Shown here: in pieces, positions 2,761 through 58,873 of the stretch
How the letters are laid out: every line of letters begins with the position of its first letter
Position numbering within the stretch: the first letter of the stretch is position 1
From: an uncultured Thermoplasmatales archaeon
GTDB taxonomy: Archaea; Thermoplasmatota; E2; DHVEG-1
Assembly: GCA_964467345.1 (NCBI GenBank)
Contig: CAYXPY010000001.1
Location: 82,986-146,985 of the forward strand
Length of the DNA: 64,000 nt
Reading direction: 5' to 3'
Made by a program: the position numbers and the translations under genes
The notes under the pieces: model-generated
Database searches by the model: none
What the model was told of the DNA's origin: nothing
What the model saw: the letters and a program-made list of their open reading frames with translations, nothing else

Positions 2761-3969
2761 ATGACATATGATGTAACGGTCGTTGGGGCAGGTCCTGCAG
2801 GCTCGACAACCGCAAAGTTACTCTCCGAAAAAGGTTTTAAAACCCTGTTAATCGATAAAGAGCAATTTCCTCGGGACAAACCATGTGGTGGAGGATTACC
2901 CCTACGCGTATTACAACGATTCCCTTATGTTGTCGTTGATAAGATTATTGAGGCGTACTCATCAAGCGGGACGGTTTTTTCTCCTTCATTGAAACACCAA
3001 ATTGATATCTGTAAAGACAGGCCAATAATATCTACAATCTTGAGGAAAAAGTTTGATTATGAATTGCTGAATTTCGCACAAAATGCAGGTGCCATTATTC
3101 AACAGCAAACTCTTGTTGATTCCGTCAAAACATCTGATGAAAAGGCGCAAGTGAAACTGCATCAAGGACAAACGATTGATACAGAGATAGTCGTTGGCGC
3201 AGATGGAGTAAACAGCGTGATTGCAAAAACAACGGGACTGCAAAAAACAGGGGCAGAAAAAGGTGTGTGTCTCCTGCAAGAGTTTGAGGTTGATGAAAAT
3301 ATTATGGATGAGTATTTTACCCCGTTTCGACATTGTTATATCCATTCGAGATTCAAATCAATAGGCGGTTATGGATGGGTCTTTCCAAAAAAAAAACATC
3401 TGAACGTAGGGTTTGGTATTGTCCAGGCCTTAAAAAATCTAGAACAGAAACCAAATATCCTGAAATGCTATCAAAGCTATGTCTCGTTGTTAAAAGAAAG
3501 CAATCTTATCCCGCAAGATTTAAAGAAAGCAGAAATCAAAGGCGGAGCACTGCCGACACATCCGTTAGAGAAAACCTATGGACGTCGCCTTCTCCTTGTT
3601 GGTGATGCAGCAGGATTTATCAATCCGTTATCCGGCGAAGGAATCTATTATGCCATGGCTTCAGGGAAAATCGCTGCAGAACTCATAACCGAAGCGTTAG
3701 AGAAAAATGACACAACAGAAGAATTTTTATCAAAATACCAGCGACTGTGGCAAAAAGATTTTGGTAAAGATATTGATCGTATCTTAACGGTTGTGAAAAG
3801 AGGAAGTGTTGAGTACACAGAACGGGTTATTCATATCGTAAGTAAAGATCGCAAACTGACCGATCTCATGATGGGGGTTATCACAGGAGAATTAGGTGTT
3901 GAGGAATACAAATGGAGAATACTCAGAAGGTTTGTTTATAGTTCGTTTAAGCATCGTCTAGGGTTGTAA
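2761..3969 (+). CDS. Geranylgeranyl reductase family flavoprotein (digeranylgeranylglycerophospholipid reductase-like).
   Basis: N-terminal FAD fingerprint MTYDVTVVGAGPAGSTTA, and an LLVGDAAGFINPLSGEGI motif typical of GGR/FixC-like flavoproteins. GGAAA RBS precedes the ATG at 2761. Confidence 0.8.
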   Translation: MTYDVTVVGAGPAGSTTAKLLSEKGFKTLLIDKEQFPRDKPCGGGLPLRVLQRFPYVVVDKIIEAYSSSGTVFSPSLKHQIDICKDRPIISTILRKKFDYELLNFAQNAGAIIQQQTLVDSVKTSDEKAQVKLHQGQTIDTEIVVGADGVNSVIAKTTGLQKTGAEKGVCLLQEFEVDENIMDEYFTPFRHCYIHSRFKSIGGYGWVFPKKKHLNVGFGIVQALKNLEQKPNILKCYQSYVSLLKESNLIPQDLKKAEIKGGALPTHPLEKTYGRRLLLVGDAAGFINPLSGEGIYYAMASGKIAAELITEALEKNDTTEEFLSKYQRLWQKDFGKDIDRILTVVKRGSVEYTERVIHIVSKDRKLTDLMMGVITGELGVEEYKWRILRRFVYSSFKHRLGL

Positions 3970-3989
3970 AAAAAGGAGCAGTGATTGAA

Positions 3990-5381
3990 ATGGACAAAAA
4001 GAAGGTATGTATCATTGGTGCAGGAATAGGTGGTTTAACAGCTGGCGCGTTACTCGTGCAGAAAGGGTTTTCTGTTGATATCTTCGAAAAGGAACAAACC
4101 GTGGGGGGACGAGCGGTTTCTATCGATATGTCTTCTCAGACCAAGGAATCGTATGTGAAGTTATTGGCGCGTTTTAATACACGTATCGTTTTTTCAGAAC
4201 CAAGTCTTGATGAAATTTTTAAAAACAAGATGTTCGAAGGATACACCCTTGACTTAGGGTTCCATATGATTGGGGGAGGAATCATTCAAAAGTTGCGTAC
4301 TATCATCATGGAATACTATGAAAAAATCACTATCTACAAATCAAGGCTATTCGAACAGAAAAACGGTCACTTTGGTTATTTTGTGACCACCGCTGACAAA
4401 ATTTCAATGTTACCCAATATTCTTCGGTTGCTTCTTTCTGGTGAACAAACCATGAAAGAATTAGATTCGGTCTCAATAACAGAGACAATTAAAAAATATG
4501 GGAAGGGCAAGATGAAAGCCGTCTTAGAGGTTAACCCTCGACTCATAAGTACCATCAACAATCTTGATGTGATTTCTACAGGAGAAGTGTTTAGAACACA
4601 AAAAGACATGAGACTTCGGGGGGTGAACTACCCAAAGGACGGGTTGTTAAAAATATCAAAAACAATCGCTGAGTATATCCAAAACAATGGCGGGAGAATT
4701 CATCTGAATAGCCCTGTTTCACAAATTGTTATAAAGAACAATAAGGCAGAGGGCGTTGTAGTCAAAGATAAAACACTCTTTTTTGATTGTGTCCTGTCAA
4801 ATATGGTGGTACAAAATCTGTTTACAATCGCTGATGAAACACAATTTCCGTCTCCATATGTGACGATGTTGAAATCCCTTGAGGGAACCGGGAGTCTTTG
4901 TGCGTATTATTCTTTAAAGACCATCAATCCAAGATTGCTGGGAAAGACATTTATTTTTGTTGAAAGAGACATCGGTGTTGATGGAAACGATGCTGCGGGG
5001 ATGATTGATTTCATCGCTTCAAAGGCAGAAACAGGGTTATCGCCCCCCTCGCAGTATTTGATACAGGCATATATCATCTGTACACCCAGGGAGGCAAGGG
5101 ATGAAGCGATGCTTAAAAAACTCAAAGGTGCATTGGATAAGAACCTTGAACGGATCATCCCTGGTTTTCGTTCACAACTTCGTTGGGCTGTGTATCCGAC
5201 GGTATGGCACTTGGATGGCGTTGCAAAGACACTTCATAACACAAAACCTGATATTCAAACACCTGTCGAAAACCTCTATATCATCGGTGATTGTGTCAAA
5301 GCTCCAGGAATCGGTATAAATTGTGCCATTAACTCGGCTCAGATAGTCCAAGAGATGCTTACAATATCAAACCATCAATAA
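3990..5381 (+). CDS. NAD(P)/FAD-dependent oxidoreductase of the phytoene desaturase (CrtI/CrtD)/amine oxidase family.
   Basis: Dinucleotide-binding fold KKVCIIGAGIGGLTAGALLVQKGFSVDIFEKEQTVGGRA. C-terminal IIGDCVKAPGIG is typical of CrtI-like enzymes. ATG at 3990 is 12 nt after GGAG; GTG at 3981 is an alternative start. Confidence 0.65.
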   Translation: MDKKKVCIIGAGIGGLTAGALLVQKGFSVDIFEKEQTVGGRAVSIDMSSQTKESYVKLLARFNTRIVFSEPSLDEIFKNKMFEGYTLDLGFHMIGGGIIQKLRTIIMEYYEKITIYKSRLFEQKNGHFGYFVTTADKISMLPNILRLLLSGEQTMKELDSVSITETIKKYGKGKMKAVLEVNPRLISTINNLDVISTGEVFRTQKDMRLRGVNYPKDGLLKISKTIAEYIQNNGGRIHLNSPVSQIVIKNNKAEGVVVKDKTLFFDCVLSNMVVQNLFTIADETQFPSPYVTMLKSLEGTGSLCAYYSLKTINPRLLGKTFIFVERDIGVDGNDAAGMIDFIASKAETGLSPPSQYLIQAYIICTPREARDEAMLKKLKGALDKNLERIIPGFRSQLRWAVYPTVWHLDGVAKTLHNTKPDIQTPVENLYIIGDCVKAPGIGINCAINSAQIVQEMLTISNHQ

Positions 5382-5383
5382 AA

Positions 5384-5402
5384 TTTTTATTTAATTATTT
5401 TT
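5384..5402 (+). terminator. Oligo-T rich stretch downstream of the CrtI-like gene. Putative archaeal terminator.
   Basis: T5 and T3-5 runs start 3 nt after the TAA stop. Confidence 0.3.
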
Positions 5403-5532
5403 AAAAATAAAAAAATATATATAATGAGTAAGTCCTACTACGGATAATAGTTGCCTTACAGAGAAGTAGAGCAATTAATATAATATCCATCTCCATTCAC
5501 AACAACAAAATACCTCGGTATATGGTGCCGTA

Positions 5533-6498
5533 ATGTCAGTAAAACTAACGATGAAGGAACCGTATATAAAAAACAGATTTCTGTCAAAAAAATTTAGAGG
5601 CTACTTTGATTTGCTCCGCCCGTTTACCTTACTTGCACCCTTCTTTGTCTCGATGTTTATCATGTTCGCAAGCCTCGTTTACAATAACAGGTTTATTGAA
5701 TTCCCGAACTGGTGGATTATCATAGGACAAGCCAGTCTTACCTTAGCGTTTCTAAACGGAGCATCCAATGCCTTAAACCAGGCAACAGATGTAGAATCTG
5801 ATAAAATATCAAAACCGTACCGCCCCATTCCTCGTGGAGTGGTGGAACGCGATGAAGCGCAAAGCATCGCCTACATTCTTTATCTGTTCGCCTTGCTTCG
5901 GGCTGTGACAATCAACACCTGGTTCGGAGTGTTTGTTTTCCTCATTATGTTGTTTACCGTGGTCTATTCTCTACCACCGCGAATGAAACGATTTCTCTTT
6001 GTCAATCAAGTCTGGATAGCAATCCCGCGAGGGTTGTTTGCAGTTCTTGCATCCTGGAGTGTTTTTGGGGATCCGTTTCAGATGGTGCCACTAATAATTG
6101 GTTTTATCGGACTCACCTTCTTCGTAGGAGCAATGACGACAAAAGATATCGTGGATTGTGAAGCGGACCGGAAAACTGGAACCCGGACACTCATTAACAC
6201 CTATGGTATTAAAAAAGCCGCGTTTATCTCATTACCGTTCCTCATCATACCGTTTGCACTCTTCCCGATACTGATTCATTACGAGATAATTGATGCATAC
6301 TTCTTACCTCTTACCATCTTTATAATACCCAGTTTTTTAATCTTTTACCTAATGATCAAACATCATCAAAGCGAAAGCTTAGAAAATGTACAAGCATGGT
6401 CACTGATGTATATCACCTACCTTTTCTATGCAATCGTATTTACTACCCTCATCATATTAGGAGAATTAGGACAACTAGATTTTTTCATACCTATTTAG
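5533..6498 (+). CDS. UbiA-family prenyltransferase, paralog A of a closely related pair.
   Basis: LLRPFTLLAP N-terminus. Motifs NQATDVESDKISKPYRPIPRG and KDIVDCEADRKTGTRT. About 9 TM helices. Confidence 0.8.
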   Translation: MSVKLTMKEPYIKNRFLSKKFRGYFDLLRPFTLLAPFFVSMFIMFASLVYNNRFIEFPNWWIIIGQASLTLAFLNGASNALNQATDVESDKISKPYRPIPRGVVERDEAQSIAYILYLFALLRAVTINTWFGVFVFLIMLFTVVYSLPPRMKRFLFVNQVWIAIPRGLFAVLASWSVFGDPFQMVPLIIGFIGLTFFVGAMTTKDIVDCEADRKTGTRTLINTYGIKKAAFISLPFLIIPFALFPILIHYEIIDAYFLPLTIFIIPSFLIFYLMIKHHQSESLENVQAWSLMYITYLFYAIVFTTLIILGELGQLDFFIPI

Positions 6499-20092: not shown

Positions 20093-20116
20093 ATGCATAT
20101 GCAATTACATATGCAT
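20093..20116. promoter_or_regulatory. 24-bp near-perfect palindrome ATGCATATGCAA/TTACATATGCAT over the annotated start of the beta-helix surface protein gene.
   Basis: One mismatch between the half-sites. An in-frame ATG at 20126 begins a signal peptide, so the palindrome may lie in the 5' leader. Confidence 0.5.
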
Positions 20117-23100
20117 GAGGATGGGATGAAACTAAAGAAATTGCTGATAGTGATTATTGGTATCTTACAATTTACACAATGTATGGGTTTTTTGGGTCTC
20201 ATCCAGACAAGCAAAGCAGATACACCCCCCACACTCTATGTAGGACAGCAGGAGACCTACACGCACATCCAGGATGCACTCGACGATGCGGCAGATGGCT
20301 ATAGAATCTTTGTCTACAACGGCACCTATAACGAGAACCTGATTATCAACAATCGAATCGACCTCTTTGGTGAAGATCGGAGCAATACGATCATCATAGG
20401 CGACGCAACGACAGTGATAACAGTAAATGCAGATAACGTCAATATCAGTCATTTTACAATAAAAAACAACGGTCCATTAGAAGCAAGTAGCGTTCTTCGT
20501 ATAAACGGCTTGAACTCGATTATAACTGATAACATCATTTCAGATGGATACCACGGAATTTACCTCTATAACACATATAATCATCTAATCTATGACAATG
20601 TGATTATCAATAATTCAGGGGATGGTATACGACTCTATCAATCATATAATATCATCAATATTAGTTATAATTCAGTATCCAAAAATAAGAACGGCATCTA
20701 CCTGTACGAATCAGATGGAGTCCGGATTTACAATAATAAGCTCCAAAATAACAACCAAAGCGGCATCTTCCTTAACAGCACATGCCAGAATAATATCATC
20801 AGCAAGAATAATGCTTCTCAAAATGGCGTCCATGGGATCTACTTAAACGACTACAGTGATTATCAAACGATAGTAGACAATCAAATCTTCTACAATAAAA
20901 ACTCAGGATTGGTTTTAGAAAACTGTAGTATGAATTTAAAAATAGACGGAAACACAGTCATAGGCAACACCAATTATGGTATAATGATTATAGGTTCAAC
21001 AAACAACATCAGTAACAACCTTGTTTCTCAGAATAAAAAAGACGGTATGTATCTCTCTGCTGACGATCATAACATGATTTATAAAAATACTATCACGTAT
21101 AACACACTCGCAGGAATCCGGATGTATAATTCTACCTATAACTACATCCGAAACAATAGAATTGGTTTTAACAAAGAATGTGGTATCTATCTTGATTTTT
21201 TTACCATACATAATCTGATTTACAATAATTACTTCCAGGACAACACAAAAAATGCAATTGATAAGAGTATCAATCGCAATAGATGGAATATCACGAGAAC
21301 AACCGGAACAAACATAATCCAAGGAACAACACTCCATGGTAACTACTGGGATGACTTTGATGAATCCAGTGAGGGAGCAATAGATGATGACTCAGATGGG
21401 GTTGCAGATGCACCATACACAATTTATGCTTTGAACACGGACAAAGGACCCATTCTTGATACAATAAATCCTTGGATACAGCTTCCTGTTGCATCTCCGG
21501 TTTCACAAACATTAGGAAGGAATACAAATCTTACCGTTCTAATAACTGACAATACGAAAATCAAGGAGGTTTATCTTAATATCTCTGGCCCAAACGGTCA
21601 GCGATTCAACACGAGCATCACTCAAAATAAGACAGGAGACACGTACTATTGTAATAAAATATTCTCATCGACTGGCAATTATACGTTTTTTATTGCTGCA
21701 CGAGACCCACGGAATTGGAACTTTTCGGCAAATCAGACATTTTCCATTCGACCTGGAGAAAAACCAACAGTAAAAGACAATTCACCGTTGACTGCAAAAC
21801 CTTCAAAGAAATACACCTTTAATGCAACCGTAACCTCAAAAAACGCCGTCGCCTCTGACCTGCAGGTCTTCGTCAGCTGGAGTCATGGAACTATCAGGAA
21901 TAACTCAACGATGGTACTCTCTCGAGGCAACTATTTTGTCGCAACAGTCACTCTTGCACATAGTATCGAAAATCTTACCTATCATTTCTATGCAACTGAC
22001 AAATGGGGAAGCAGCGTTGTTACTGAAAATAAAAAAATAAAAGTCATCGATACAGAACCTCCTGTGATTCATATCAACCGTTATGGCCCATCTGTTCAGG
22101 ATTTTCCAAATAGTTACACCTATGAAGCAACAATAACCGACGACTCTATTGTATCAACAGTGACGATCGAATATTGGTATAACAGCAGCAATAAGATGAA
22201 GACAAATATGGATTCAATGACAAATAATCGCTATAAAAAAGTGATTATTTTTGATGACGACACCCCTGAACTTTTTTGCATCATCAATGCAACTGACATC
22301 GCAGGAAACAAAAATGATACCAGGAATCCTATCGCATGTCACAACGGTCCATATAACGGTTTTATTCTCCAAGAGATAACATTTAATGGATCGAAGAGTT
22401 TCGATCTCGATGGAACGATTACCAATTATTCATGGGATTTCGGTGACGGTACAACAGCAAACAATTCCCTAGCGACACATGCGTATTTTTCAAGCGGTAC
22501 CTATACTGTGACATTAACTGTGACCGATGATCAAGGAAAAAAAGGAACAAACCAGACCCGTATTACAGTCATCCCATTCTCCCAACATTTGATACCGCTT
22601 GATCAACTTGCCCTCATTAACACAAGGTATAATCTTAATCTCAGTGAACCTTTCTTCTGTTACGATTCCGATGGTAATGGAGCTGTAGATAAATTTGTCG
22701 ATCCTGCCCAGATACTTATCACCATTCATGATACGCCACTGAATTTCAACAGCAACACCTTATTTTTAATTTCAATCGGTGAAGATGCTATTCCTGAATT
22801 CTTCTGGGAAACGACGACTGATCTGATTTTCCCTATTACACACACGATAGGAATGATTCAGAACAAGATAGTCGATGATTTAAATGAACAAGCTAAATTA
22901 TATGTCACAGTTGACAAGGGACAATGGATCTATATAGAAATCGATGATCCATACCCTGATTCACCAGTCACCATTACTACGAAAGGCAGGATGCTTTCTG
23001 CCGATAATTATTGGAGGAAAAATCAAAAAATCTATGTCTTTGACGATCCTGAAACCAGCTACGAGTTTCTTTTTATTAATATTTTCCCACCGCTGAGTGT

Positions 23101-23767
23101 GATCTTTTCACCAGCTGACGGGGGAGTGATCGATGGCGATTATCCAACAATCAGAATTACATATAATGCACCAGTGACCATCATCTCTGCGATATTTAAT
23201 CAAGACGACATTCATGCTGAGCTACTACGTTTAGACGATAAAAGTTACTTGTACACACCCCCAGGCTATCTGGAAAATGGAACGTATGAACTTGAAATCC
23301 AGGCGCAGGCTCTGCAAGGAAAAGGATACCTCGCCACTTCAGCTGTGTATTTTTATTTTTCCTATGAGCCAGCACCCCAGAAGAGTTTTCTTGAAAACAA
23401 CTGGTTTTTGATACTCACAGGTATTTTGGTTGGTATGATTGGAGGTATGCTGGTATTCTTTAGAACAAAGGATATCACCATTGAGGGATTTGTCTATCTG
23501 AGGAACAAAAAAATCATCCCGTTTTTTAAATCTGTTATCGTTGGACCTGTAAGCATCCAGATACCTCAGGAGCAGTTCAGCAAAGCCGAATTTTATATTG
23601 ATGGGCAACTGAAAGACGAAGTGACATCCTTTCCGGTCCGTTGGCAATGGAACGAAAAAGCGTTCCTGAAGCATACGCTTGAAACAAAAATTTATGACCA
23701 GGAAGGAAACAGCGCTTCAAGTGGTGAATTAGAATTCTATATTTTCAACCCGTTAAAAGGTAAATAA
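20093..23767 (+). CDS. Large cell-surface protein (1224 aa). Signal peptide, right-handed parallel beta-helix (NosD/pectate-lyase-like) repeats, a PKD domain, and a C-terminal TM anchor.
   Basis: Recurring NxxxxNxxxGIYL beta-helix repeats. WDFGDGTTANNSLATHAY PKD signature. Hydrophobic FLILTGILVGMIGGMLVFF near the C-terminus. Alternative start at 20126. Confidence 0.7.
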   Translation: MHMQLHMHEDGMKLKKLLIVIIGILQFTQCMGFLGLIQTSKADTPPTLYVGQQETYTHIQDALDDAADGYRIFVYNGTYNENLIINNRIDLFGEDRSNTIIIGDATTVITVNADNVNISHFTIKNNGPLEASSVLRINGLNSIITDNIISDGYHGIYLYNTYNHLIYDNVIINNSGDGIRLYQSYNIINISYNSVSKNKNGIYLYESDGVRIYNNKLQNNNQSGIFLNSTCQNNIISKNNASQNGVHGIYLNDYSDYQTIVDNQIFYNKNSGLVLENCSMNLKIDGNTVIGNTNYGIMIIGSTNNISNNLVSQNKKDGMYLSADDHNMIYKNTITYNTLAGIRMYNSTYNYIRNNRIGFNKECGIYLDFFTIHNLIYNNYFQDNTKNAIDKSINRNRWNITRTTGTNIIQGTTLHGNYWDDFDESSEGAIDDDSDGVADAPYTIYALNTDKGPILDTINPWIQLPVASPVSQTLGRNTNLTVLITDNTKIKEVYLNISGPNGQRFNTSITQNKTGDTYYCNKIFSSTGNYTFFIAARDPRNWNFSANQTFSIRPGEKPTVKDNSPLTAKPSKKYTFNATVTSKNAVASDLQVFVSWSHGTIRNNSTMVLSRGNYFVATVTLAHSIENLTYHFYATDKWGSSVVTENKKIKVIDTEPPVIHINRYGPSVQDFPNSYTYEATITDDSIVSTVTIEYWYNSSNKMKTNMDSMTNNRYKKVIIFDDDTPELFCIINATDIAGNKNDTRNPIACHNGPYNGFILQEITFNGSKSFDLDGTITNYSWDFGDGTTANNSLATHAYFSSGTYTVTLTVTDDQGKKGTNQTRITVIPFSQHLIPLDQLALINTRYNLNLSEPFFCYDSDGNGAVDKFVDPAQILITIHDTPLNFNSNTLFLISIGEDAIPEFFWETTTDLIFPITHTIGMIQNKIVDDLNEQAKLYVTVDKGQWIYIEIDDPYPDSPVTITTKGRMLSADNYWRKNQKIYVFDDPETSYEFLFINIFPPLSVIFSPADGGVIDGDYPTIRITYNAPVTIISAIFNQDDIHAELLRLDDKSYLYTPPGYLENGTYELEIQAQALQGKGYLATSAVYFYFSYEPAPQKSFLENNWFLILTGILVGMIGGMLVFFRTKDITIEGFVYLRNKKIIPFFKSVIVGPVSIQIPQEQFSKAEFYIDGQLKDEVTSFPVRWQWNEKAFLKHTLETKIYDQEGNSASSGELEFYIFNPLKGK

Positions 23768-27904: not shown

Positions 27905-28267
27905 TTACGTTTTTAATATCTTATCGACCCGCTGTAAGAGCGTCTCCTTGTCAAAGGGTTTCATAATGTAATCTGCCAATCCTTCATCAATCAAGACCTG
28001 CTTTCGCTTCTCAGAGATGTCTAAAACACTCATGAATGCGACTTTGATGTCCTTGTTTTTCTTTTTGATACGGTTAAAAACATCCCAACCGCTCATACCC
28101 GGCATCATAATATCTAATAAAACCAAGTCGACCTTTTCTTTTTCAAGTCTGCGTAATGCTTCCTCACCGCTGTAGGATGGCACGACGGTATATCCCCCTA
28201 GTTCCAGGACAGTTCTTGTCAAATCAACGATGTCAGGTTCGTTATCGACGACCATAATTTTTTTCAT
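27905..28267 (-). CDS. Response regulator receiver protein (CheY-like, no output domain).
   Basis: MKKIMVVDNEPDIV...DLVLLDIMMPGMSGWDV, with the conserved Asp pocket and a downstream Lys. Confidence 0.85.
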   Translation of the reverse strand: MKKIMVVDNEPDIVDLTRTVLELGGYTVVPSYSGEEALRRLEKEKVDLVLLDIMMPGMSGWDVFNRIKKKNKDIKVAFMSVLDISEKRKQVLIDEGLADYIMKPFDKETLLQRVDKILKT

Positions 28268-28439
28268 GTTATCGGCTCCTCATCCATGTTCGTAAGGCCG
28301 GTTTGGCTATAAGAACATATCGTAAATTGTTTATTATAATTATTCTTTTTTGTCTGATTGTCACTAGCCCATTTAAGAAAAAGAAAAGTATAAAATCTCA
28401 TCAACGATATGATTTTTGATAAAACCTGATGGGTGCGCC

Positions 28440-31610: not shown

Positions 31611-32036
31611 ATGGGTTGCATGGGAAAAACAATAGCACTTAAAATAACAAAAAAAGAGGAACAGATTATTGCAGAGCTCAATAGACTTGGATTGAGTAAT
31701 AGTGATCTTTTAAGAAACGCTCTTCGTGAATACTTATCTTACATTCATGAATCATCTCCAGAGGACACTGAGCTAAAAAACATTTTTATAAAGCAAGAAG
31801 ACAAACAGGCAAGAGTATTTGATACCTTTAAAGAACTGAAAGAAGAGATAAAGCATTTACGGCAAGAAATGGAAAAAAATCAAAAACAATTTGAAAACGA
31901 CATGACCTTACTTCAGAGACGATTATATCTGCTTTCGGTCAGTCATCCAATCGCGACTCAAGATTCATCATCAAGAAAAGAGCATAGTGTTCATGATATT
32001 CATCAGGAAGTTGATGAATTTCTTCAGAAACAGTGA
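31611..32036 (+). CDS. Ribbon-helix-helix (CopG/Arc-like) DNA-binding protein with a C-terminal coiled coil.
   Basis: KTIALKITKKEEQIIAELNRLGLSNSDLLRNALREYL has the strand-helix-G-x-S-helix RHH pattern. The heptad-like charged C-terminal half suggests a coiled coil. ATG at 31620 is an alternative start. Confidence 0.5.
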   Translation: MGCMGKTIALKITKKEEQIIAELNRLGLSNSDLLRNALREYLSYIHESSPEDTELKNIFIKQEDKQARVFDTFKELKEEIKHLRQEMEKNQKQFENDMTLLQRRLYLLSVSHPIATQDSSSRKEHSVHDIHQEVDEFLQKQ

Positions 32037-32082: not shown

Positions 32083-32457
32083 TTAAGGTGGTGTGACAAA
32101 ATATCCTTTTACCGTCTGGAGTAACTGCCTTGTGTCGAAAGGCTTGGTGATGTAATTTTTAATGTATTGTTTGAGGTCATCCATCTTCCAATCGCATTCA
32201 TCCTTGGCTGATATCATGGAGATGATATTGCCTTGATTGAGTCCCTTGGTTATTATTTCACGAATGGTCGCCCATCCATCCATATGAGGCATCATGATAT
32301 CCATGAGTATGACACCTTTGAAACCGTGTTCGAGTTCGTCTATGCAGTCTTTGCCGCACGGGACTGTGTATACCTCAAATCCTTCTGATTCAAACAATTC
32401 CCGTACCGTGATAAGAATATCAGGATCGTCATCCACAATCATGATCTTTTTTTGCAT
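32083..32457 (-). CDS. Response regulator receiver protein (receiver only).
   Basis: MQKKIMIVDDDPDIL...GVILMDIMMPHMDGW. Confidence 0.8.
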   Translation of the reverse strand: MQKKIMIVDDDPDILITVRELFESEGFEVYTVPCGKDCIDELEHGFKGVILMDIMMPHMDGWATIREIITKGLNQGNIISMISAKDECDWKMDDLKQYIKNYITKPFDTRQLLQTVKGYFVTPP

Positions 32458-32567: not shown

Positions 32568-32822
32568 TTACGTAATCATTGGGTCAAATGCGTCTGTGTT
32601 GTTTGGGGGCCGGGGGTGATTTCGCCCGTTTAATCTTTTTGCAATCTGGTGTAAAAAATTCTTTTCTACCATTTCTACTTGTCTTTTACTGAGATTCGTC
32701 TTCCTAATCAATATTTCCCCTCGTTCGTTAATGACCTCGATGATGCCTCGCTCTGCGTCTGAGATTACTTTAAATGTTTTTCCTTTTGTTTGGAGCCAAT
32801 CCCAGATGTGTTCACCTGTCAT
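32568..32822 (-). CDS. Small protein (84 aa) of unknown family. Paralog A, divergently paired with KaiC-like gene 1.
   Basis: About 40% identical to 33836..34063, sharing the pattern IWxWxQ...K(V/A)IS..E.G.I......I(L)R(K/R)T.LS..QV. No Cys or His. Confidence 0.55.
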   Translation of the reverse strand: MTGEHIWDWLQTKGKTFKVISDAERGIIEVINERGEILIRKTNLSKRQVEMVEKNFLHQIAKRLNGRNHPRPPNNTDAFDPMIT

Positions 32823-33047
32823 AAAAATTCCTTAATTTTTATATATTTTTAAGTTAGTTTATTGGTATTTAAACATTCCGATAAAATCAGTTCAAAACCT
32901 GAACGAGTCAAAGAACGAGGTTCTTCCAGGGTCATATTTTCAGTCTGACAGATTTACACCTTATGTTTATATAGTCGTAATAAGAGAAATTGACGCGGTA
33001 AACATTAAAGAGATGGAACAAGATAGTGTTTACCTTGAGAGTGAAGC

Positions 33048-33839
33048 GTGAGTGAATTTCGTATCCCTAATATAAAACTTGAAATGCTACGGGAAGAAGA
33101 GGTGGTGTTGAAGACCCAAATCCCCGGGTTTGATGAATTATTTAAAGAAGGGGGCGTTCCGAAGCGAAACGCCATTTTGGTCGCTGGTGGAGCAGGTACC
33201 GGTAAGAGCACATTGTGTAGACAAATCTGTTATAATCTTGTTACGCAGGGTAAGCATTGTATGTATGTGAGTTTCGAGGAGAGTATCGAGAAAATTGAGC
33301 GAAGTATGTCTGCGTTTGGTTGGGATGCGAAAAGATACGTTGATTCAGGGCATTTGCTCATCCAGAAGATTAATCCGTTGGATATTCTTCGAATGAAATT
33401 CGGTTCGGTGAGCGGATCTGGTTCAGCGACAGAGTTATCCTATAAGATTAAACCATTGATTATCCCAAAAGATTTTAATCCAGAGATCATCGTCGTTGAT
33501 TCATTAACCGCTGTTATCTCTGCGTCTATCAGCAAGGAGAAAAACTACCGGGTATATCTCCAGCAGCTGTTTAATTTCTTTGAAGATACCCATGCAACAT
33601 CCTTTTTGATAACAGAGACTGAACCGATTCCGACGAGGTTCAGCGAGACAGGGATTGAAGAATTTTTAGCAGATGGGATCATTGTGTTATATAATCTCCA
33701 GCTTGGTGATTGCCGGCAGAACGCTATTGAGGTGCTGAAGATGCGGTATTCAAATCATCAGAAGAAAATATTTTCGATGGAAATCTACAATAAGGGGATA
33801 AAAGTGTATCCGGACCGACAGATATCATTACCGGTCTAA
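33048..33839 (+). CDS. KaiC-like single-domain RecA-superfamily ATPase, copy 1.
   Basis: IPGFDELFKEGGVPKRNAILVAGGAGTGKSTLCRQ is the KaiC/RadA-paralog signature. GTG start at 33048; ATG at 33084 is plausible. Confidence 0.8.
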   Translation: MSEFRIPNIKLEMLREEEVVLKTQIPGFDELFKEGGVPKRNAILVAGGAGTGKSTLCRQICYNLVTQGKHCMYVSFEESIEKIERSMSAFGWDAKRYVDSGHLLIQKINPLDILRMKFGSVSGSGSATELSYKIKPLIIPKDFNPEIIVVDSLTAVISASISKEKNYRVYLQQLFNFFEDTHATSFLITETEPIPTRFSETGIEEFLADGIIVLYNLQLGDCRQNAIEVLKMRYSNHQKKIFSMEIYNKGIKVYPDRQISLPV

Positions 33840-34063
33840 AGATAGGTAAAGGGTTCTTTTCTGTCACCGATTTTATTAAGGGCATAGGTTGCAAAGATAA
33901 GTTCTATGGTTTTTACTTGCTGTCGTGAAAGGCCGGTGCGGCGCAAGATGATGTTGTCACATTCGTCATAAATTGAGATGGTGCCTGACTCTCTGTTTGA
34001 GATTGCTTTGAGTATTCTGTTGTTTTGCACCCATATCCAGATTTTAATGCCCTTCGTGCTCAT
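33836..34063 (-). CDS. Small protein (75 aa), paralog B of 32568..32822. Divergently paired with KaiC-like gene 2.
   Basis: Homology to paralog A. ATG at 34063. The 3' end overlaps the KaiC-1 stop by 4 nt (convergent). Confidence 0.55.
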   Translation of the reverse strand: MSTKGIKIWIWVQNNRILKAISNRESGTISIYDECDNIILRRTGLSRQQVKTIELIFATYALNKIGDRKEPFTYL

Positions 34064-34233
34064 GTTTTCATTCTCGTGTATCTATGATATATATTTCATT
34101 TAATAAATATATAAATATTTTCATAAATATTAATATACTATAATGAAACCATGTCAATAATCGTCATGCAAACTGGAGTCGAAGATAACAAATTAATTAT
34201 ATATCCACAATTATACAGAGGCGAGGGTGGATC

Positions 34234-34992
34234 ATGGCGCTCATCCAGACTGATACTAAAGTTACAGTGAGTAAAATGGAACGTGTGAAAACAGGTATTA
34301 AAGGACTCGACGAACTAATCTCAGGAGGGCTGCCAAAAGAAAGCATCACCCTTGTCTCAGGACCACCAGGAAGCGGTAAATCTATTTTCTGTTATCAATT
34401 CATTGCCCAAGGTGTCCAAGACGGTGAAAAATGCCTGTATCTTACACTTGATAAGAAAATCGAAGGACTACTCCTGCAAGCCTCAGAGTTGGGACTGAAT
34501 TTCGCACCAGCAATCCAAACCGGACAAGTCAAATTCCTCTTCCTCAATATCAATAAAAAACTCATCTACGAAAGCATGATCAATGAAATCCTCTCAGGCA
34601 ATTATGACCGTATCGTCCTTGACTCGATAACACCCTTATCAGAGATGCCGATTTATATCAACAACCCTGAATTCACCAGCGAGGTCGATAACATCGACCA
34701 TGGAGAAATAACGTCAGGGAACTTCCCAGTCAGACGGCTCCATCTCCATTACATCATGAACGCTTTGGAAACAGCAAAATGCACTGCTGTCGTGACCTCA
34801 GAGCTCCCATCAGGTTCAACACATTACTCCCGTGATGGCCTCTCTGAATTCCTCGCAGACGCAGTAATTATCCTAAGTCTCGACCCGACAATGGACCGCC
34901 GCAAGCTAGCTGTAATGAAAATGCGAAGCACCAAACATACACTGAAGCCACAGAACATAGAAATCGGCAAGGGCGGCATGCAAATAGTCTAA
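34234..34992 (+). CDS. KaiC-like single-domain RecA-superfamily ATPase, copy 2.
   Basis: VKTGIKGLDELISGGLPKESITLVSGPPGSGKSIFCYQF...GEKCLYLTLD matches the KaiC family closely. Confidence 0.85.
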   Translation: MALIQTDTKVTVSKMERVKTGIKGLDELISGGLPKESITLVSGPPGSGKSIFCYQFIAQGVQDGEKCLYLTLDKKIEGLLLQASELGLNFAPAIQTGQVKFLFLNINKKLIYESMINEILSGNYDRIVLDSITPLSEMPIYINNPEFTSEVDNIDHGEITSGNFPVRRLHLHYIMNALETAKCTAVVTSELPSGSTHYSRDGLSEFLADAVIILSLDPTMDRRKLAVMKMRSTKHTLKPQNIEIGKGGMQIV

Positions 34993-34996
34993 GAAC

Positions 34997-35464
34997 ATGT
35001 TCCAATACCGACCACCAAAACAGCTCCGGGCGCTTTTCATTATCCATTATGCACCCCTGCTGCTGATTATCCTCATAGGACCCCTTACTGCGTATTACGG
35101 TGTCTGGGAGATCCCTTTACCGAAACTTATGACGATCATTTCAGGATGTATCGTTTTTCTCCTTGGCACGTATGTCTATTTCAAATGGGAAATCTTCTGG
35201 CATAAAACATACAAAGGACAGCTGGTGACTGATGGGATCTTTCAACAGATCAGACATCCCCATTACACCTCCATCCTCATCGTTGGGTTCGGCCTAGCAT
35301 TGTTTTTCTATTCCCTCTTTGCATTTGCCATCTCTGTGATCGCCATCCCATTAATGATATGGAGTATAATCGATGAAGAAAAGGTACTGATGAAACAGTA
35401 TGGGGAGCCTTATAAGGAATATATGAAAAAGGTGCCCTGGAGAATCATCCCAAGGATCTTCTGA
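34997..35464 (+). CDS. Isoprenylcysteine carboxyl methyltransferase/phospholipid methyltransferase family membrane protein.
   Basis: C-terminal IRHPHYTSILIVGFG...EEKVLMKQYGEPYKEY ICMT/PEMT signature. Four-nt gap after KaiC-2 suggests co-transcription. Confidence 0.65.
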   Translation: MFQYRPPKQLRALFIIHYAPLLLIILIGPLTAYYGVWEIPLPKLMTIISGCIVFLLGTYVYFKWEIFWHKTYKGQLVTDGIFQQIRHPHYTSILIVGFGLALFFYSLFAFAISVIAIPLMIWSIIDEEKVLMKQYGEPYKEYMKKVPWRIIPRIF

Positions 35465-36550: not shown

Positions 36551-36654
36551 GATTACTCACCCTGCATGAGATTTTGCTTTAGAATGAGACTACATCAGCA
36601 GGGTGCATATAAAACTACGTTTGAAGGTTTCAAAGTAACATAAAAAAAGAAGGA

Positions 36655-36728
36655 CGGACCTGTCGGGATTTGAACCCGAGTCAGAGGCTCCGGAGGCCTC
36701 TGTGATATCCAAGCTACACTACAGGCCC
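36655..36728 (-). tRNA. tRNA-Arg (anticodon CCG).
   Basis: Reverse complement folds as acceptor GGGCCTG/CAGGTCC (one G-U pair), anticodon arm GAGGC-CTCCGGA-GCCTC, and T-arm TCGGG-TTCAAAT-CCCGA. 74 nt, no encoded CCA. Confidence 0.8.
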
Positions 36729-36880
36729 AAGACAACCCGGCTAATCCGCAGAAGAATTAATAGGTTTTGCGTGGTCTTTCTTTTTTCTTTATATAGATAG
36801 TTTTAGACAAAGAGTAATATTCTATTCGGAATCTCAAAACACTATGGAAAAAACGTAGCAAAAGAAATCCTACTGCCAAT

Positions 36881-58481: not shown

Positions 58482-58873
58482 AAGTATTCCAAAATGACGA
58501 CGACCTATTAATACTCAGTGATAGAGTGGAAAAACCATGACTATTTTGTAAGGAAATCAAACGGTGACTAATAACTGAAATGGTGACCTAGGAAGAGGAT
58601 TAATCAAGGAGCTGAATTATTATTTAGAATTATTATATAATTTGATAACAATTGTACAACAAGACTTTATAAGGAGCAAATCAACCCCTTTACTGCATGA
58701 TAGTAATCGGACTTTTATCCACGGAAGAAGAAGCACAGGAAATCCAATTTATTGCAAAGATATGTACCGTCGAGAACCGTATTCGCTATCTTGTGCATGT
58801 TGATCGGATAAAACGGCTTGCCGACGAGCAACACAGCCTATAACGTAAATTACAAAAACATCCTTTTTGTTGT

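Follow-up and report, generated by a model that had tools for sequence, protein, structure and literature searches.

The question raised by this locus is what two small basic proteins do beside two archaeal KaiC-family ATPases. The locus lies in a 64,000-nt stretch of DNA (the window) from an uncultured Thermoplasmatales archaeon (GCA_964467345.1, contig CAYXPY010000001.1, positions 82,986-146,985 of the forward strand), the archaeal character of which is evident from the neighbouring genes for ArgRS, S27ae, S24e, Spt4, RpoE' and aIF2-gamma. Each of the rightwards-transcribed ATPase genes, KaiC1 (33048..33839; 263 aa) and KaiC2 (34234..34992; 252 aa), diverges from a small leftwards-transcribed gene, small1 (32568..32822; 84 aa, pI 9.6) and small2 (33836..34063; 75 aa, pI 9.7) respectively, across spacers of 225 nt and 170 nt. 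All four open reading frames (ORFs) are present exactly where an original prediction had placed them, and there are no further copies of either the small genes or the KaiC genes within the 64-kb window. We propose, as a tentative reading that we hold with less than even confidence, that the small proteins are adaptor or regulator subunits of a lineage-specific, vertically conserved, KaiC-centred signalling cassette.

Judged by their pattern of substitution, small1 and small2 are real genes under strong purifying selection. Across the window and the corresponding loci of 12 related Thermoplasmatota genomes (L001-L012), dN/dS is approximately 0.07-0.1, although most pairs have reached saturation at synonymous sites; the dN/dS values for the window and L001 are 0.031/0.468 for small1 and 0/0.397 for small2. 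There are more than 100 clusters of orthologues for each small protein at 48-100% identity, nearly all equal in length. Thermoplasmatota metagenome-assembled genomes contain hundreds of orthologues with 57-100% identity, and the names they carry include Thermoplasmatales archaeon SM1-50 and Thermoplasmata archaeon M9B2D. An origin as chance ORFs is ruled out by the dN/dS of ~0.1 together with these plentiful orthologues. The two proteins are also genuine paralogues (BLASTP E=7e-13) and share the core IWxW...K.IS...G.I...R.T.LS..QV described in the original prediction, with an identity of 34% (23/68 residues) in place of the ~40% given there.

The earlier view that these proteins could not be placed in any family holds, as neither has a significant match in Pfam, NCBIfam, PHROG, PADLOC or the PDB sequences. 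A profile built from the family recovers just 126 clusters at E<=1e-3 among 1.84 billion representatives, almost all of them stand-alone proteins of 55-100 aa, and by this measure small1 and small2 belong to a narrow, undescribed family. Two sets of matches were discarded: the betaproteobacterial 'relatives' L013-L015 (~6001..6192) are chance matches inside an RseP protease, seeded by the word EVINERGE, and the 816-aa P0335 is an Ig-repeat protein with five short matching stretches, taken as spurious. A viral origin was rejected, with no relatives on IMG/VR contigs and no PHROG match, as was a defence system, PADLOC giving no matches except P-loop-level ones.

Alignments of the family show three groups. 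Clade A comprises the small1-like proteins with the tail FDPM[IV]x (FDPMIT in small1 itself), clade B the small2-like proteins with the tail EPFTYL, and clade C proteins that start with GxWxWxQP and end with [DN]PM[YF]A. All share one architecture, in which a globular domain is joined through a linker that varies in length to the conserved C-terminal peptide [DE]-P-[MF]-x-x. The domain is predicted to fold as ββββα, with the linker flexible and the tail disordered; the small2 model of the ββββα domain is confident (pLDDT 84), and small1 is predicted to have four beta-strands and a helix with a disordered linker. Structural searches with these models returned twilight-zone matches only, mixed with immunity and anti-adaptor proteins, and the WGR, PUR repeat and polo box folds, each of which has a β-meander and a helix, all score below conventional significance with no sequence-profile match and no WGR signature. 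The fold is probably new or highly divergent. Unlike KaiB, the small proteins are not predicted to be thioredoxin-like, and KaiB is absent among the fold matches. An arrangement of domain, linker and disordered tail matches that of a docking adaptor, and we note that the two paralogues with their distinct clade-specific tails adjoin two different KaiC paralogues; both points favour the adaptor reading.

Both ATPases are single-domain KaiC-like proteins, as first proposed, with PF06745 matches at 1e-53 (182.6 bits) for KaiC1 and 7.4e-44 (150.3 bits) for KaiC2 against a cut-off of 26.6 bits; the best PDB sequence matches of both are KaiC and the single-domain PH0186 and PH0284. KaiC1 aligns to the KaiC CI domain and has a Walker A motif (GGAGTGKST), a catalytic FEES (FEE[ST] in orthologues) and a Walker B motif (VVDSLT), all of which are kept in 12 orthologues, so that it is apparently an active single-domain KaiC-family ATPase; an alternative start at an ATG at 33084 is possible instead of the GTG. 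KaiC2 is only 29% identical to KaiC1, and although its Walker A (GPPGSGK[ST]; GPPGSGKS in the window) and Walker B (VLDSIT) motifs are conserved, an invariant LDKK at residues ~72-75 replaces the catalytic Glu-Glu in all 11 orthologues, in agreement with the pairwise alignment of KaiC1 and KaiC2. It is therefore probably a conserved but hydrolysis-impaired paralogue and looks like a conserved pseudo-ATPase or nucleotide sensor. Inactivated 'iKaiC' domains are a recognised theme in archaea (PMC5847659), and the loss of the catalytic glutamates in KaiC2 fits this concept, with a weak local match to the MEDS/iKaiC family PF14417 (E=0.0099; 16.2 bits against a cut-off of 29.8).

A timing role, also raised in the original prediction, finds no support in these data: both ATPases are single-domain, KaiC2 lacks the catalytic glutamates, and there are no matches to KaiA or KaiB among the neighbouring genes scanned. 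The NCBIfam circ_KaiC scores are 96.9 and 56.2 bits against a cut-off of 546, and at 252-263 aa neither protein has the tandem CI+CII arrangement (~500 aa). What the locus shares with cyanobacterial KaiABC is the ATPase superfamily, the alignment of KaiC1 to CI with its Walker A, EE and Walker B motifs, and the idea of a ring with a small partner.

A further component of the cassette is a PEMT/ICMT-family membrane methyltransferase (34997..35464, rightwards-transcribed), which starts 4 nt past KaiC2. The original assignment as an ICMT-like enzyme is borne out by matches to PEMT (39.4 bits against 25) and ICMT (26.8 against 24), with the NCBIfam protein-S-isoprenylcysteine O-methyltransferase equivalog not reached (53.4 bits against 160). 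Enzymes of this family methylate C-terminal carboxylates or lipids, and we note as an unexplained coincidence that one is tightly coupled to KaiC2 where the small proteins bear conserved C-terminal peptides; classic ICMT chemistry is inapplicable to these tails because they have no Cys.

Comparison of all of the ORFs of the locus by BLAST against the window proteins shows that KaiC2, small2, KaiC1 and small1 keep their order and orientation in each of the 12 relatives, and that the methyltransferase gene is beside KaiC2 in each of the 11 whose contigs reach that far (the L002 contig ends at KaiC2). The genes to the left of small1 are a stand-alone CheY-like receiver (32083..32457, leftwards-transcribed), which follows small1 after 110 nt and has its orientation, and a peripheral, rightwards-transcribed gene for a 141-aa protein (31611..32036). 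The receiver-only response regulator is as originally described (PF00072, 2.2e-23, 83 bits, residues 5-116 of 124), but the neighbouring protein, previously called an RHH DNA-binding protein, has just a weak N-terminal match to RHH_1 PF01402 (17.8 bits against a cut-off of 20.5, with 18 residues matched) and is otherwise coiled-coil-like. The adjacency of the CheY, RHH-like and ArgRS genes is kept in L001-L006 only and is gone in L007-L012, so the core KaiC/small block, present in 12/12 loci, is steadier than its surroundings. This persistence of the block (in part also in L021) while flanking synteny decays is a second line of evidence for the adaptor reading.

The same comparison bears on whether small1 might instead partner the adjacent receiver, for example by binding its receiver domain in the manner of an anti-adaptor, the KaiC genes then being neighbours within one signalling island. 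We consider this the least probable of the explanations discussed here, since the CheY adjacency is gone in L007-L012 while the KaiC block stays. Moreover, small2 has no receiver neighbour, and the similarity to IraM is not significant.

The relatives differ from the window in the interval between KaiC1 and small1. In L003-L012 there are ~3 kb (~2900..6000) containing two genes upstream of KaiC1 and on the same strand, one encoding a NosD/β-helix/PKD protein of 620-630 aa that is membrane-anchored at its C terminus, and the other a protein of ~280-300 aa with an N-terminal hydrophobic segment and a weak match to DUF7289 in L009. A similar NosD/DUF7289 cassette is present in L021 (1264..4386), where the KaiC block is partly kept and the latter protein is recorded as DUF7289; a literature search for DUF7289 gave no match. 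KaiC1 is thus the third and last gene of a NosD/PKD operon in 10/12 relatives and in L021. The window (32823..33047), L001 and L002 do not have these two genes but keep the same promoter and leader, with both promoter blocks and the leader described below conserved in 13/13 sequences. Because the spacer retains the promoter and leader found before the NosD-like gene, the direct adjacency of small1 and KaiC1 is most simply seen as a secondary state, derived through the clean loss of two operon genes; the opposite course, in which the two genes were inserted in the other lineages and the window state is the original one, could also have been taken. We asked whether the two genes had moved elsewhere in the window, but a NosD/PKD gene at 20093..23767 and the adjacent 302-aa ORF have domain-level similarity only or none.

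The association of KaiC1 with surface-protein genes recalls the archaeal KaiC-like regulator CirA, which is tied to cell-surface and motility genes (PMC10983859), and the co-operonic NosD/PKD and DUF7289-like genes in most relatives are a point of likeness to ArlH/CirA. The locus differs from these in that the ArlH equivalog is far from reached (64 and 50 bits against 215), in that it lacks arl genes as well as ATPase or platform genes of an archaellum or pilus, and in that the window has lost the surface cassette.

The spacers themselves contain short blocks that are conserved far above neutral expectation. Upstream of small2 there is a 35-nt nearly invariant element on the minus strand (34103..34137; TATATTAATATTTATGAAAATATTTATATATTTAT), unique in the window, that contains a TATA-like box and extra conserved sequence and has 92% identity, and a TATA-containing block (34187..34206; 86% identity) lies ~30 nt upstream of the KaiC2 ATG; elsewhere in this spacer identity is 51%, and the four-fold sites of small2 have 44%. 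In the other spacer, the small1 promoter block on the minus strand (32853..32879; AATGTTTA[A/T]ATAC...AAA..AAC) includes a TATA-like box for small1 and has 82% mean pairwise identity, and a block facing KaiC1 (32941..32974) has 74%, against 50% for the remainder. The latter contains a perfect TTTATATA box at 32966..32973 and an upstream conserved GTGT.AAA.TGTCAGA, and is present before KaiC1 or the NosD-like operon alike. Between this block and KaiC1 is a conserved leader (33010..33051; GAGATGGAAC..GATAG) which can be read as a 12-codon upstream ORF (33013..33051) that overlaps the KaiC1 GTG start and encodes MEQDSVYLESEA followed by a stop; its first part is conserved before the NosD-like gene in relatives, and it may be a regulatory leader or the remnant of a deletion junction. 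Structured RNA was considered and rejected, with no Rfam match to the spacers and a fold z for the 35-nt element of -1.35, which is not significant.

These blocks are best read as archaeal promoters with TATA and B recognition elements (BRE) plus further putative regulator sites, and their positions suggest a near-leaderless KaiC2-PEMT transcript. Because the blocks in the divergent spacers are conserved so far above neutral expectation, each small gene and its divergent KaiC operon are probably co-regulated, and the contrast between blocks at 74-92% identity and ~50% in the rest of the spacers (44% at four-fold sites) counts in favour of the adaptor proposal. A separate observation concerns the 3' ends of small2 and KaiC1, which are convergent and overlap by 4 nt in the window (33836..33839); across the window and L001-L007 the overlap is 4-10 nt, with a gap of ~30 nt in L008-L012, and transcriptional interference or antisense effects are possible.

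The conserved spacers also invite a different explanation, namely that the small proteins bind nucleic acid and act as local transcription regulators at their own bidirectional spacers, controlling themselves and the divergent KaiC operons, with the C-terminal peptide recruiting or sensing another factor. In favour of this are that the proteins are basic and divergently encoded, that the conserved DNA resembles operators and that family members elsewhere adjoin various operons. Against it, the small proteins have no recognised DNA-binding motif or family match, their structural matches are of the twilight-zone type noted above, and small archaeal transcription factors do not typically carry a conserved C-terminal peptide on a disordered linker. 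The AT-rich blocks may simply be TBP/TFB sites, or another regulator may bind them, for instance the RHH-like protein encoded nearby. In addition, the promoter element does not accompany the gene into other contexts: autoregulation was tested by looking for a motif common to the clade-B genes beside KaiC and those of the Usp/CBS lineage, and none was found, the latter lineage having instead a conserved TTGTACAA palindrome. We therefore regard local regulation as possible but rather unlikely, and place it second after the adaptor reading, although the two fit the evidence about equally well. The palindrome, found in L017, L022, L023 and L028 between the Usp gene and a micro-ORF, directly upstream of a TTTAAAG box and sometimes repeated, is a candidate operator that is unrelated to the window elements.

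The original prediction held that the KaiC/small pairing had been duplicated as a unit, and the history of the small genes does not bear this out. A neighbour-joining tree of 73 columns and 200 bootstraps puts small2 with Usp/CBS-linked proteins in clade B, which has 100% bootstrap support, and small1 with L033 and clade-C proteins that are not KaiC-linked. Since the two small proteins join such different relatives, the split between clades A and B is older than the KaiC-linked lineage; the small genes separated long before the cassette lineage arose, and KaiC1 and KaiC2 are as divergent as noted above. Duplication as a unit would require KaiC linkage to have been lost several times afterwards and is not the economical reading.

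Nor is the family generally found with KaiC. A second sub-lineage of clade B (L017-19, L022-24, L028-29) has the order GrpE, DnaK, Usp (leftwards), a 37-40-aa ORF, the small gene, CBS (leftwards) and TrpRS/TyrRS, and no KaiC. The distant clade-A member L033 precedes genes for a 114-aa unknown protein, a multi-PAS protein, a receiver, a methyl-accepting chemotaxis protein and CheW, again with no KaiC. Clade-C neighbours include a HAMP protein (L016/L037), a TSP3-repeat protein (L020, no KaiC), and ArlD/E-like genes with a large HATPase_c protein (L025, no KaiC). In L026/27, also of clade C, the family member lies in a cluster of small genes that all run in one direction, together with genes for a helicase, an AAA ATPase, a PD-(D/E)XK nuclease and a family-B DNA polymerase, no KaiC being present; by gene content this cluster looks like a mobile element, either a virus or an integrated element, and has no relatives in IMG/VR. 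Recurring contexts among 43 clade-C metagenome loci are Tsr3/small gene/ABC transporter and RimK/RLAN/small gene with FMN reductase-Old Yellow Enzyme.

Among the loci covered, KaiC linkage outside L001-L012 is seen at two. L021 falls in the window's own sub-lineage and, L035 aside, is the sole such locus; L035 (564..5514) is the one clade-C locus of the 43 with a KaiC-domain gene near the small gene, and there a NosD-like gene is followed by one for an 810-aa protein with a C-terminal KaiC domain, divergent from an HTH_20/MarR-like gene and the small gene, a layout that echoes the window clade. The specific pairing with KaiC claimed in the original prediction does not extend to the family, KaiC being absent near the small gene in five Usp/CBS-type loci, L020, L025, L026/27 and L033 and present at 1/43 clade-C loci. 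That prediction had also offered as its refutation a match to a common domain that is not linked to KaiC elsewhere: no known domain was matched, and KaiC linkage elsewhere is indeed largely lacking. Family members do recur beside signalling genes, in L033, L025 and L016/L037 and with CheY, histidine kinase, PAS or HAMP neighbours in ~9/43 clade-C loci, a further point for the adaptor reading.

The breadth of these contexts raises a third explanation, in which the small proteins are general adaptors with tails that dock onto a universal machine (the 20S proteasome alpha-ring through an HbYX-like tail, a conserved ATPase, the ribosome or RNA polymerase), and the KaiC adjacency is a matter of inherited order, the genes having no direct functional tie. 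Its appeal is that the [DE]-P-[MF]-x-x tail is kept across clades in unrelated genomic contexts and that KaiC adjacency is missing in most lineages. A hydrophobic residue followed by Tyr and any residue (HbYX) is the C-terminal pattern of proteasome activators, and this is matched by the clade-C ends M-Y-A, M-Y-S and M-F-A and by V-Y-L in some clade-B members. With both the HbYX tails of proteasome activators and the acidic tip of bacterial single-stranded DNA-binding protein (SSB) the small proteins share the succession of globular domain, flexible linker and short C-terminal peptide, and the clade-C …PMYA fits HbYX; however, there is no homology to either, and the window tails …PMIT and …FTYL fit HbYX poorly, as small1 ends in M-I-T with no aromatic residue and small2, which matches only in part, ends in T-Y-L with no hydrophobic residue before the Tyr. 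Proteasome genes are not seen beside any member, and the steadiness of the KaiC block relative to its flanks, together with the shared promoter regions, argues for some functional coupling. We judge a universal receptor to be improbable, and rank it third, ahead of the pairing of small1 with the receiver.

We return to the proposal that small1 and small2 serve the KaiC proteins. The cassette would comprise KaiC1, KaiC2, the PEMT/ICMT-type methyltransferase co-transcribed with KaiC2, and two anciently diverged members of the small family. Each small protein would dock onto its partner through the C-terminal peptide, the neighbouring KaiC-type rings being the best candidates in this lineage, and would then modulate or relay the nucleotide state of the ATPase, with the differing tails (FDPMIT and EPFTYL) giving partner specificity. 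We infer the co-transcriptional coupling, the physical docking, the identity of the partners and the downstream output of the cassette from gene arrangement and motifs, and a dedicated KaiC-partner role is plausible on these grounds.

Several points weigh against it. The small genes did not arise by recent duplication together with the adjoining KaiC genes, and most family members beyond this lineage (the Usp/CBS loci, L020, L025, L026/27, L033 and the clade-C loci) have no KaiC within ~6 kb. The C-terminal motif is common to all clades, which points to a receptor shared by all of these organisms rather than KaiC1 and KaiC2 specifically. Common descent by itself can maintain synteny inside one order-level lineage, where adjacency is weak evidence of partnership, and the basic pI, divergent orientation and operator-like DNA suit a transcription factor equally. 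Of the original idea of an uncharacterised KaiC-based signalling module, the conserved block, the shared promoter regions and the signalling-rich setting are supported, and the timing role, the duplication as a unit and the KaiC-specific partnership are not.

KaiC-family ATPases have been proposed as archaeal signalling hubs acting through partner proteins (PMC5847659), and the locus is a variant within this known theme of KaiC-centred signalling neighbourhoods, the small family itself being undescribed. As far as can be taken from their citation in PMC5847659, the archaeal single-domain KaiC-like hubs of Makarova, Galperin & Koonin (2017), of which PH0186 (2zts) and PH0284 (2dr3) are solved examples, resemble this locus in having single-domain PF06745 proteins such as KaiC1 and KaiC2 among CheY and PAS histidine kinase genes, beside small uncharacterised proteins and with one copy catalytically degenerate. 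The locus is unlike them in that the small family has no match to KaiC-associated domains in the libraries searched and in that its association is limited to one lineage. The partners and outputs of such hubs are almost all undiscovered, and this locus offers a compact and conserved test case. If the small proteins do bind KaiC rings, or promoter elements instead, the wiring of such hubs would be revealed; otherwise the locus still yields a structurally distinct family of small proteins with a testable C-terminal motif. A bolder extension, which we think has only a slim chance of being correct, is that they are founders of a new archaeal class of 'tail-docking' micro-adaptors, with a novel ββββα domain and the [DE]-P-[MF]-x-x peptide, for ring ATPases (KaiC-type hubs here, and possibly other rings or the 20S proteasome elsewhere) that couple these to different inputs, and that would here join the active KaiC1 and the pseudo-ATPase KaiC2, with the methyltransferase, into one switch over cell-surface protein expression.

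Other features of the window deserve brief mention. The surroundings of the cassette are rich in signalling genes, with the CheY-like gene adjoining and a two-component system 4 kb away in the segment 20093..28279. This segment encodes a 1224-aa NosD/β-helix/PKD surface protein (rightwards), a 302-aa ORF that could not be annotated (leftwards), a 1062-aa multi-PAS histidine kinase (leftwards) and a second stand-alone, CheY-like receiver (27908..28279, leftwards). To the right, a tRNA-Arg(CCG) gene (36652..36729, leftwards) lies between a CorA-like gene and the S27ae/S24e ribosomal protein genes. Finally, a rightwards 48-aa micro-ORF (58697..58843; MIVIGLLSTEEEAQEIQFIAKICTVENRIRYLVH…), which is 25 kb away from small1 and small2 and has folate-biosynthesis genes on one side and a D-aminoacyl-tRNA deacylase gene on the other, is homologous (50% identity) to the conserved 37-40-aa ORF that immediately precedes the clade-B small gene in the Usp/CBS lineage.

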